IMG/VR virus record: IMGVR_UViG_3300028805_000144
Span: 1-55,286 of that record
DNA length: 55,286 nucleotides
Strand: one strand, 5' to 3'
Origin: a virus
Below the pieces are notes generated by a model. It saw only the letters and a program-made list of their open reading frames with translations. It was not told the origin of the DNA and did no database searches. Made by a program: the position numbers and the translations under genes. Below are positions 13,023 to 14,100 of this stretch, one piece after another (the first letter of the stretch is position 1; each line of letters starts with the position of its first letter).

Positions 13023-13262
13023 CAAAAAGGTATCTTGCAAAAATGATAAGGCATACACAGCAAATTATTTTGGTTAAAGAAAAATTCTGCAAAAATTTTT
13101 TGAAACGGTTCAATTCCGTAAATATGCCTTGTAAAAACTAAGACGTACACAGCAAATTATTTTATCTCTGCCATATTTAGAATATGAGGACTAGAGAACC
13201 TCAAATATAACGCGTCTTGTAAATTTCGGGGGCGTGGTGGAATAGGTAGACACCCGAGACTT

Positions 13263-14035
13263 ATACAAATTGAGTGCATAAGTAAGAAATTCTTATGTAG
13301 AAGATGGCTAATTCGACGAAAATCTGTTTAGGCAGACAACGACGAGCTAAAATTTTTGGGCAGACCCATAAAATTGTCTTTTTAAATTTTTGATATATAA
13401 TATCAAAAAAAGAAAAGGAGAAAATTTTATGGCATTACATCCCTATACAAAAGAATGGCTTGAAGAACTTTGTTCTGATAGTTATTCACTAGCAGAAGTT
13501 TTAAGAAAAGCAGGACGTAAACAAGGTGGAGGTACACAAGCCACTTTAAAGAAAAAAATTGAGGAATTTAATATTGATATTTCTCATTTTACTGGACAAA
13601 GATGGCAAGACAGCCCTCACCAATAGCCTCAAGATTATAGTAATAAAGAAAAATACGAAATAGAAGACATCTTTATTGCTAATAGTCCAGTTACTCAAAA
13701 AGTAATGCGAGGATATGTAGAAAGACATAAATTATTAGATTATAAATGTCAAACCTGTGGCTGTGATGGTCATTGGCAAAATGGATTAATTTCATTAGAA
13801 ATTGATCATATTGATGGTGATAATACTAATAATTAGTTATCTAATCTTAGATATTTATGTCCAAATTGTCATGCTTTAACTGAAACTTATAGAGGAAAAA
13901 ATAAAGCATTAAAAGCTACCCAAAAATAAATGTGTAGAGACTATACACCATCCACCTAAGTCAGTAATGATATGGTGAAGAAATAGTCCAGACTACAACA
14001 TTATTATGATGGCTATGGTGACATAGAGTAGTAAG
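13263..14035 (+). mobile_element. putative group I intron carrying an HNH homing endonuclease ORF
   Basis: interrupts the tRNA-Leu anticodon loop at the position of the cyanobacterial/plastid tRNA-Leu group I intron; the 5' exon ends in U, the intervening sequence ends in G; it has its own promoter-like element at 13375-13401. Confidence 0.6.
13429..13929 (+). CDS. HNH homing endonuclease (2 in-frame TAG)
   Basis: RBS AAAAGGAG; N-terminal YTKEWLEEL...SLAEVLRKAG...GG motif common in Firmicutes HNH endonucleases; C-terminal CQTCGC...DHIDGDNTNN(TAG)LSNL..CPNCH HNH motif. Confidence 0.75.
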
Positions 14036-14100
14036 AAAATCTCGTGAACGCAAGTTCGTGCGGGTTCGAGTCCCGCCGCCCCCATCTTATGAAACAATAG

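Follow-up and report, generated by a model that had tools for sequence, protein, structure and literature searches.

Could a bacteriophage keep a self-splicing intron, together with an endonuclease gene of the intron's own, inside one of its transfer RNA genes? This question is raised by a viral DNA of 55,286 nucleotides (IMG/VR record IMGVR_UViG_3300028805_000144, positions 1 to 55,286; the whole stretch is called the window below), in which a tRNA-Leu(UAA) gene is interrupted in its anticodon loop by an insert containing an open reading frame (ORF) of the HNH type. According to the textbooks, group I introns of phages lie in protein-coding genes, and tRNA introns belong to bacteria. Here, we suggest, with a probability of roughly 87%, that the insert is a mobile, IC3-like group I intron located between U34 and A35 of the phage tRNA-Leu(UAA), with an HNH gene in the loop of its P6 helix.

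The split tRNA gene

With introns allowed, ARAGORN calls positions 13228-14084 of the native DNA as tRNA-Leu(taa), i(36,773). The two exons joined in silico form a canonical class II Leu cloverleaf of 84 nt, with a long variable arm and the loop CUUAAAA (ARAGORN). This loop is composed of C32 U33 U34 and A35 A36 A37 A38, and the 773-nt insert (13263-14035) separates position 34 from position 35. Exon 1 is closed by U13262 and the intron by G14035. If both boundaries were moved by one base, the product would be unchanged, yet only the chosen ones place a U before the 5' splice site and a G at the end of the intron. The original prediction for this locus, made from the sequence without database searches, had located the split at 34/35 with the same exon coordinates, with U ending exon 1 and G ending the intervening sequence, and had equated the site with that of the cyanobacterial and plastid tRNA-Leu intron; all of this is borne out, the match of the site included (ARAGORN; site cited in PMC13011429).

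The gene is absent from the default ARAGORN calls and from those of the Rfam tRNA model, which find 19-21 tRNAs in the window. TTA is the commonest Leu codon in the window's long ORFs (48% of Leu codons) and accounts for 11 of the 15 in the HNH ORF, so a spliced tRNA-Leu(UAA) would have an obvious use for the phage.

The ribozyme core

Is the insert, then, a group I intron? A covariance model (R1) was built from an alignment of 13 ORF-less relatives, from which the window sequence was left out. When both strands of the 55-kb window are searched, R1 gives exactly two matches, which are the halves of the intron on either side of the ORF: 13253-13432 (62.3 bits, E 5.6e-17; the real match is 13253-13351) and 13863-14047 (120.1 bits, E 6.5e-34; the real match starts near 13926). 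From the same 13 relatives, RNAalifold recovers P2, P3, P4, P5, P6, P8, P9, P9a and P9b, with compensatory changes in 42 of 57 pairs. The full structure was evaluated by adding the window, minus 13365-13918, to the alignment and writing in P1 and the P3/P7 pseudoknot. Canonical pairs occupy 89.2% of the pair cells, compared with 35-40% when the partners are slid by 1-3 columns, and both sides change in 47 of 66 pairs. The covariation score reaches 0.516 (slid controls, 0.09-0.14), and the observed pairing and covariation values are reached by none of 500 shuffles. All core pairs in the window are canonical except for one A.A in P4, and, apart from a block inside P6, its intron can be aligned nearly base by base with compact relatives, for example the 209-nt intron of L065 (relatives are denoted by L numbers).

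These results bear on a core (P3-P7) that could not be verified by eye when the insert was first proposed to be a group I intron, and whose absence was then named as evidence against the proposal. A P1-P9 core with the P3/P7 pseudoknot is found in the two halves matched by R1, and its covariation is seen in the pair counts, in the RNAalifold structure and in the P7 helix of a further relative, L242.

The P1 columns (helices in Table 1) are 100% paired, and UG occurs at the splice site in 11 of the 13 sequences. Every P2 pair changes on both sides among the relatives; so do all 5 pairs of P3, in 4-8 of the 13 sequences, with pairing kept at 100%. P4 is formed by UUCGACG (13312-18) and CGACGAG (13340-46) with the one A.A mismatch, and P5 by UCUG (13323-26) and CAGA (13333-36). 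There is heavy covariation in P9a and P9b, and the context of the terminal guanosine, AAG/AAAAUC (the slash marks the splice site), is kept in all 44 viral tRNA-Leu(UAA) relatives among the matches listed. The P8 motif, CCUAAG...UAUGG, is presumably an 11-nt tetraloop receptor.

Where is the ORF accommodated? It lies in L6, the loop of P6, and an equivalent long-range P6 stem with compensatory differences (GGA/UCC, GGC/GCC, GGGU/ACCC) is present in every relative with an ORF in L6. For example, AUUUUUGGA faces UCCAAAAAU in L090, CUAUUUUUGGC faces GCCGAAAAUAG in L077 and AUUUUGGGU faces ACCCAAAAU in L066. The ORF thus protrudes from P6 as a loop, around which the ribozyme core can form; such a peripheral position is usual for intron ORFs (PMC3984707).

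The inventory of helices, that is, P2 present, the P5abc extension absent and P9 compact, fits subgroup IC3, an assignment that is normally made by subgroup covariance models. By this inventory and a presumed likeness to the Azoarcus intron described below, the insert may be a small tRNA-type intron of the IC3 kind.

The HNH gene and the reading of TAG

The ORF matches Pfam PF01844 (24.5 bits, cut-off 21.4) and PHROG 10822 (E 1.8e-50), and both CxxC pairs and the DH...N...CPNCH residues are intact, in agreement with the HNH endonuclease that had been predicted at 13429-13929. The protein is full length compared with its homologues, with no frameshift, TAA or TGA stop, or truncation, and CQTCGC...DH...NN(TAG)LSNL...CPNCH aligns with them. 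Such homologues, at no more than 75% amino-acid identity, are present in the tRNA-Leu introns of 20 relatives among the matches listed. We infer that the ORF is an intact endonuclease gene, the product of which would be an active nuclease. No significant relative of the protein was found among solved structures (McrA E 0.02, I-HmuI E 0.29). In a blastn search against GenBank phages, HNH-motif matches were obtained in T4-like and jumbo phages, along with one real intron match, in phage Lak-C1; the ORF is similar at the DNA level to free-standing HNH genes of the T4-like and jumbo phages.

Two locations are known for this HNH family, L6 and the position immediately behind the 5' splice site, and AGGAG-like boxes occupy the same place in the homologous cassettes. 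At the 5' edge of the cassette (window 13356-13390), there is a recurring layout of TTTGG(G)CAGAC, 5-9 nt, AAAATTT, a TATAAT-like box, AGGAG and then ATG, which is also present upstream of the ORFs in L004, L091, L085, L026, L037, L032, L079 and L076, with the cassette in either of the two locations. This layout suggests that the ORF and a control region of its own may together form a portable module.

Two TAG codons interrupt the frame under the standard code. In the window, 161 in-frame TAGs occur in 18 of the 36 long ORFs (161 in 14,132 codons, ~1.1%), and the density in the HNH ORF (2 in 166) equals that in the clearly coding ORFs genome-wide. The longest ORF grows from 838 to ~2900 residues once TAG read-through is allowed. 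A tRNA(CUA) gene is located in the same tRNA block as the tRNA-Leu and would be needed for translating the two TAGs; as the second of them lies inside the catalytic motif, HNH activity would require TAG decoding. The original prediction had the ORF depend on two TAG read-throughs. The in-frame TAGs are indeed there, but no special read-through events are called for, because TAG is a sense codon genome-wide and the phage has a tRNA(CUA).

Which amino acid does TAG specify? Probably Gln, since TAG aligns with a conserved Gln in the homologues L068, L079 and L076, and a pattern of TAG to Gln and TGA to Trp has been described in recoded phages (bioRxiv 10.1101/2021.08.26.457843). Among the intron HNH homologues in viral contigs, TGA is also found at conserved Trp positions, three in L066 and two in L091. 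With TAG at conserved Gln and TGA at conserved Trp, the HNH family seems to adopt the code of its host phage and would therefore live in TGA-to-Trp recoded phages as well. The similarity of tRNA(CUA) to the other tRNAs of the window was uninformative about its identity (best match Thr, 65%).

The in-frame TAGs are strongly clustered along the window. None is present in the gene blocks 488-4580, 25774-27899 and 49363-55044, and the blocks 18816-25607 and 32778-48620 are TAG-rich, with 7-56 TAGs per gene (56 in the 2902-codon ORF 39912-48620). Such clustering agrees with a published proposal in which recoding is a mark of late genes.

Relatives and probable mobility

The lineage was followed with a 17-mer, ATAGTCCAGACTACAAC, which extends from P7' to P9 and was scanned in IMG/VR viral contigs. 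It occurs in at least 120 of these and, in nearly all viral contigs among the matches listed, ...GUAGUAAG and the 3' half of a tRNA come after it. The 17-mer is also present in at least 120 cellular or metagenome-assembled genome (MAG) contigs, including complete chromosomes; one Cyanobacteriota MAG contig, L125, carries it. Among the matches listed, ARAGORN identified 47 split genes for tRNA-Leu(UAA), of which 44 are unique; their introns, all at the same site, are 206-1087 nt long. Other split tRNA species were identified as well. ORF-sized tRNA-Leu(UAA) introns account for 27 of 44 viral and 4 of 29 cellular cases among the matches listed (Fisher p 8e-5), both samples being biased by the seed motif and by the listing (at least 120 contigs each).

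The closest comparison is provided by a sibling genome. Megablast of 20 kb of the window against GenBank phages found no related genome. When the RlaP protein, whose gene lies immediately downstream, was used to search viral contigs, a single syntenic sibling came to light, L242 (IMGVR_UViG_3300032038_000065), with flanks 77-81% identical to the window at the nucleotide level. The tRNA-Leu(UAA) of L242, 24 nt before RlaP, is uninterrupted, that is, an empty site, with the loop GACUU AAAAUC as in the window. The tRNA(CUA) of this sibling (L242:3226-3512) is interrupted by an intron of the same family that is 212 nt long and ORF-less (R1 186.7 bits, E 3e-54; RF00028 26.6 bits, E 1.8e-4), and the tRNA(CUA) of the window is intact. 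The L242 intron appears to lie between positions 35 and 36, and the interrupted suppressor would have to self-splice first.

The window intron itself is a mosaic, the three parts of which have different nearest relatives: L091 and L004 for the ORF (78-79% nucleotide identity), L156 and L065 for the 5' core (75-77%), and L026 and L067 for the 3' core (87%). Together with the empty site in L242, the HNH family in two loops and the viral enrichment of ORF-bearing forms, this mosaicism points to an intron that would be mobile.

Introns of the same family are also found in tRNAs that ARAGORN calls Leu(CAA), Ser, Lys, Ile, Thr, Phe and His (L073, L106, L017, L063 and other viral loci). In some relatives other than Leu(UAA), the putative 5' exon ends in C and not in U (...ACUC/G...), where C-G would replace U.G. 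In addition, the tRNA-Leu(UAA) of Lak-C1 (L001:1891-2612; MK250029.1 ~331990-332710) appears to be split twice by group I introns. The first is at the anticodon-loop site (R1 93.6 bits, 2224-2585); the second breaks into the D-arm region and is recognized by a match to part of the core (25.9 bits, E 2e-7, 2065-2219). In the bacterial survey discussed below, group I introns are described only within the anticodon loop (PMC13011429). ROOL RNA (RF03087) is found beside the tRNA arrays at L106:3362-3925 and L053:2879-3444 (318 and 283 bits, respectively).

Expression of the locus

Does the intron have a promoter of its own, as had been proposed? The promoter-like element, TTGTCT-16-TATAAT, is present inside L6. 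Its role as a promoter, on the other hand, looks weak: a scan that includes it gives 8 sigma-70-like matches, compared with 7.0 +/- 2.9 in shuffles. With the position weight matrix (PWM) of the phage's nine strong promoters, the element scores 1.9 bits (rank 178 of ~110,000) against 40-46 bits for the strong promoters, and it was rejected as a member of that family. The strong promoter at 12161-12195, which precedes the block tRNA(CUA)-Met-Thr-Phe-Cys-Leu, is the likelier driver of the tRNA-Leu and its intron. As it precedes the whole block, co-transcription of the intron with the suppressor tRNA would be the simplest reading.

The nine near-identical promoters, TTGATTTTTTTAAAAAATTATGATATAATATATAT (-35, 17-nt spacer, extended -10), are all on the + strand ahead of gene and tRNA blocks, starting at 1847, 2807, 4079, 5424, 7443, 10515, 12161, 15147 and 17286, with a weaker copy at 51878. 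Promoters of this type are also repeated in L242, L037 and L085. They suggest that the host may use the classical sigma-70/sigmaA promoter type and not the Bacteroidetes type.

Table 1. Features of the interrupted tRNA-Leu(UAA) locus and its surroundings, in window coordinates.
Feature	Position	Strand	Description and basis
Strong sigma-70-type promoter TTGATT-17-TGnTATAAT	12161..12195	+	Upstream of tRNA block; PWM 43 bits; one of nine near-identical copies
tRNA(CUA) suppressor	12385..12459	+	ARAGORN; Rfam tRNA 66 bits; 770 nt upstream of tRNA-Leu, same tRNA block
5' exon of tRNA-Leu(UAA)	13228..13262	+	Acceptor 5' strand, D-arm, 5' anticodon stem, C32 U33 U34; ARAGORN
Group I intron, 773 nt	13263..14035	+	Ribozyme core of ~216 nt and ORF-bearing L6 insertion of ~557 nt; R1 model hits
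Internal guide sequence UGAGU	13271..13275	+	Pairs with ACUU/A (13259-13263) as P1; U13262.G13272 (U34.G) wobble at 5' splice site
P2 hairpin	13276..13298	+	GAAA tetraloop 13286-13289; RNAalifold and pair counts
P3 5' strand GAUGG	13303..13307	+	Pairs with CCAUC at 13948-13952
P4-P5 domain	13312..13346	+	RNAalifold and pair counts
P6 5' strand AUUUUUGGG	13352..13360	+	Nine perfect pairs, across 558 nt, with CCCAAAAAU
Sigma-70-like element TTGTCT-16-TATAAT	13374..13401	+	Putative; inside L6, upstream of HNH ORF; 10/12 matches
Shine-Dalgarno AAGGAG	13415..13420	+	8 nt before ATG of HNH ORF; read from sequence
HNH homing-endonuclease ORF (predicted)	13429..13929	+	166 codons and TAA; last codons overlap P6 3' strand; Pfam, PHROG, tblastn, alignment
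In-frame TAGs of HNH ORF	13624-13626 and 13834-13836	+	Open-frame reading
P6 3' strand CCCAAAAAU	13919..13927	+	Overlaps last sense codons and stop of ORF
P7 5' strand GACUAU, guanosine-binding helix	13939..13944	+	Pairs with AUAGUC at 13983-13988; crosses P3 to form pseudoknot
P8 hairpin	13953..13977	+	Motif CCUAAG...UAUGG, GUAA loop; RNAalifold and pair counts
P9 (ACUAC/GUAGU)	13992..14032	+	Encloses P9a (13999-14011) and P9b CUAUG-GUGA-CAUAG (14013-14026)
Intron terminal guanosine (omega G)	14035	+	Read from sequence
3' exon of tRNA-Leu(UAA)	14036..14084	+	A35 A36, 3' anticodon stem, long variable arm, T-arm, acceptor 3' strand; ARAGORN

Weighing the explanations

Several points weigh against a mobile, self-splicing intron at this locus. 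An Rfam search with Intron_gpI (RF00028), the check that the original prediction had proposed, is not significant for the native window (10.8 bits, E 8.6 at 13846-14012; gathering score 50 bits), a miss that we attribute to the splitting of the core by the 557-nt ORF insertion in L6. The gathering score is passed by two same-site ORF-less relatives, L048 (80.8 bits) and L119 (51.3 bits), and 10 of the 12 relatives tested, as well as both ORF-less homologous introns of Prevotella phage Lak-C1, fall below the threshold. Consequently, RF00028 seems insensitive to this AT-rich lineage, and the native score was not taken as absence. In addition, P10 has only ~2 bp, and P4 contains its A.A mismatch. 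P7' and P9 are invariant in the sample and so receive no support from covariation there, because the sample was picked on that very segment; in the L242 intron, found via the neighbouring protein, GGGCAU/AUGCUC replaces GACUAU/AUAGUC, which amounts to two compensatory pairs in P7. Both TAGs of the HNH ORF fall in variable alignment columns, where the amino acid is not fixed by the alignment. Finally, splicing, endonuclease activity and homing are deduced from the sequence.

Could the tRNA-Leu gene simply be dead, with a decayed intron that no longer splices and a phage that relies on the tRNA-Leu(UAA) of its host? The insignificant Rfam score, the P4 mismatch and the weak P10 would all be expected of such a gene. 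We regard this as very improbable, as the remaining core pairs are all canonical, the model made from relatives only recognizes both halves (62 and 120 bits), and the P4 mismatch is shared by the compact intron of L065. Moreover, the nine pairs that close P6 over the ORF are perfect, and the exons keep a perfect cloverleaf for the phage's commonest Leu codon. Decay might instead be confined to the ORF: the ribozyme would be active and the HNH gene a pseudogene in which the TAGs are real stops, leaving the intron immobile, late in the life cycle of a homing endonuclease. Two in-frame stops under the standard code, one of which splits the catalytic motif, are consistent with this, and so are the many ORF-less introns among the relatives, which imply that the ORF is frequently lost. 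However, the TAG density is that of clearly coding ORFs and a tRNA(CUA) is encoded nearby, the frame is otherwise undamaged with its CxxC pairs and DH/N/H residues in place, and TGA stands at conserved Trp positions in homologues from TGA-recoded genomes, which shows that taking up the host phage's code is routine for the family. This explanation is thus quite unlikely.

Also unlikely, in our view, is an active HNH protein that does not home the intron, being a maturase or splicing helper, or else a nuclease of the free-standing type that uses the intron as a safe harbour and targets, for example, the genomes of competitor phages. The ORF and the intron do have partly separate histories, given the mosaicism and the presence of the family in two loops, and at the DNA level the ORF resembles HNH genes that stand free in T4-like and jumbo phages. 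Nevertheless, the family recurs at the tRNA-Leu(UAA) site in the 20 relatives mentioned above, ORF-bearing introns are commoner in the viral than in the cellular sample, and the intron is polymorphic for presence and absence between the window and L242. Furthermore, none of the HNH enzymes is known to act as a maturase.

For the preferred explanation, a mobile group I intron, the following course may be proposed. The tRNA block would be transcribed from the strong promoter at 12161, and the intron would fold, after which free guanosine would attack after U34 and the freed exon end would attack after G14035. The intron would thereby be released and a functional tRNA-Leu(UAA), reading TTA, would be ligated. 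The HNH protein could be made from the precursor or from the excised intron via the AAGGAG site, only when TAG is decoded, probably as Gln, by the phage tRNA(CUA). During co-infection, the enzyme would cut or nick intron-less tRNA-Leu alleles of related phages, and repair would copy the intron into the cut allele (homing).

Other interrupted tRNAs and significance

Three more tRNA genes of the window, at 7288-7421, 17403-17545 and 17682-17805, and possibly one at 8801-8915, contain short anticodon-loop insertions (58, 67 and ~40-60 nt), which are too small to be group I introns. These genes are spanned by the Rfam tRNA model (44-56 bits) and missed by default ARAGORN. Two of the inserts share a closing stem and a T-arm-like hairpin, UAUAAGU(U/G)CAA(A/C)UCUUAUA. 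The insert at 17403 is kept in L242 (82% identity), and the acceptor stem of that tRNA shows compensatory changes. A scan of IMG/VR viral contigs for the short-insert motif gave zero exact matches, and no Rfam families were found inside the inserts.

The tRNA array is embedded in a set of genes of the RNA-repair type (14110-15135, 15209-15553, 19577-20680, 49363-51834, 52394-53638 and 488-1591). This set comprises an RlaP nucleotidyltransferase, a cyclic-phosphate-processing receiver domain (cREC_REC), DUF2828/DUF7788, an MVP-shoulder (vault-like) protein, an RNA ligase (PF09414) and a Band-7/SPFH protein.

What does the locus mean for phage genomics? As default finders miss the tRNA-Leu(UAA) and at least three more interrupted tRNAs in this window, phage tRNA complements are under-counted, which affects the codon-usage and host-independence arguments that rest on such counts; the missed tRNA reads the most frequent Leu codon of the phage. 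The tRNA-type intron is common in viral contigs, where it often has an HNH gene, a pattern that fits co-infection favouring homing. The intron in the suppressor tRNA of L242 would link ribozyme activity to code switching. The value of these observations lies mainly in annotation, in intron ecology and in the link to stop-codon recoding, and not in a new mechanism.

Taken jointly, the observations might mean that phage tRNA arrays are a large unannotated reservoir and vector of endonuclease-bearing tRNA-type introns, which are temporally wired in recoded phages, an idea so tentative that we would sooner doubt than accept it. If it were true, introns would move from one tRNA gene to another and pass between phages and bacteria. 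As long as suppressor tRNA has not accumulated, ribosomes would be halted at the in-frame TAGs, far ahead of the P6 3' strand, so that early folding of the ribozyme would deliver tRNA-Leu and synthesis of the homing enzyme would be confined to the late phase. For L242 and similar siblings, the code switch would depend on the ribozyme, as the suppressor tRNA would self-splice first.

Comparison with known systems

The most familiar counterpart is the cyanobacterial and plastid tRNA-Leu(UAA) intron, for example that of Nostoc/Anabaena PCC 7120, which interrupts the same gene at the same 34/35 site (PMC13011429). Both have a small tRNA-type core, a U.G pair at the 5' splice site, a terminal G and an anticodon stem that flanks P1. 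However, the cyanobacterial and plastid intron is ORF-less, vertically inherited and located in a cellular or plastid genome, whereas that of the window is phage-borne, has an HNH gene in L6 and belongs to a lineage defined by AUAGUCCAGACUACAAC, which is found in viral contigs and non-cyanobacterial MAGs. What is shown is that the site is shared, and no common descent is claimed.

The tRNA-Ile IC3 intron of Azoarcus likewise has a P2 with a GAAA loop, no P5abc and a short P9. Its segment J6/7-P7-P3'-P8 is presumably near-identical to that of the window (GUGUAGAGACUA...CCACCUAAG...UAUGG). The Azoarcus intron differs in its tRNA and insertion site, in having no ORF and in its location on a bacterial chromosome.

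A 2026 mSystems survey of complete bacterial genomes reports 333 tRNA group I introns, 81% of them IC, with endonuclease genes in only 12 of the 333, including HNH genes in tRNA-Leu(UAA) of Bacteroidota (PMC13011429). Set beside the window by description, these Bacteroidota introns share the tRNA, the PF01844 superfamily and a length of more than 500 nt. The window differs in being the genome of a TAG-recoded phage, and most introns of the viral sample (among the matches listed) contain an ORF.

Classical phage introns with HNH endonucleases, such as those of SPO1 and RB3, belong to IA-type subgroups. The introns of I-HmuI (SPO1 DNA polymerase) and I-TevIII (RB3 nrdB) resemble the present one in being phage-borne and self-splicing, with an HNH enzyme in a peripheral loop and spread by co-infection, but they interrupt protein-coding genes, where reviews place phage group I introns (PMC3984707), and I-HmuI matches the window protein only at E 0.29. 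The Agate phages also have an intron homing endonuclease with in-frame recoded stops, which should delay its synthesis until the suppressor is available (bioRxiv 10.1101/2021.08.26.457843). There, TGA is recoded to Trp and the intron lies in an early protein-coding gene, whereas here the codon is TAG and the intron lies in a tRNA gene within the suppressor's own block.

In the literature searched, the coverage of which is incomplete and gives no proof of absence, no account was found of phage tRNA genes that carry group I introns, and the abundance of this lineage in viral contigs seems not to have been described before. Each component is already known; the novelty lies in the setting, as the interrupted tRNA gene belongs to a TAG-recoded phage and shares its block with the suppressor.

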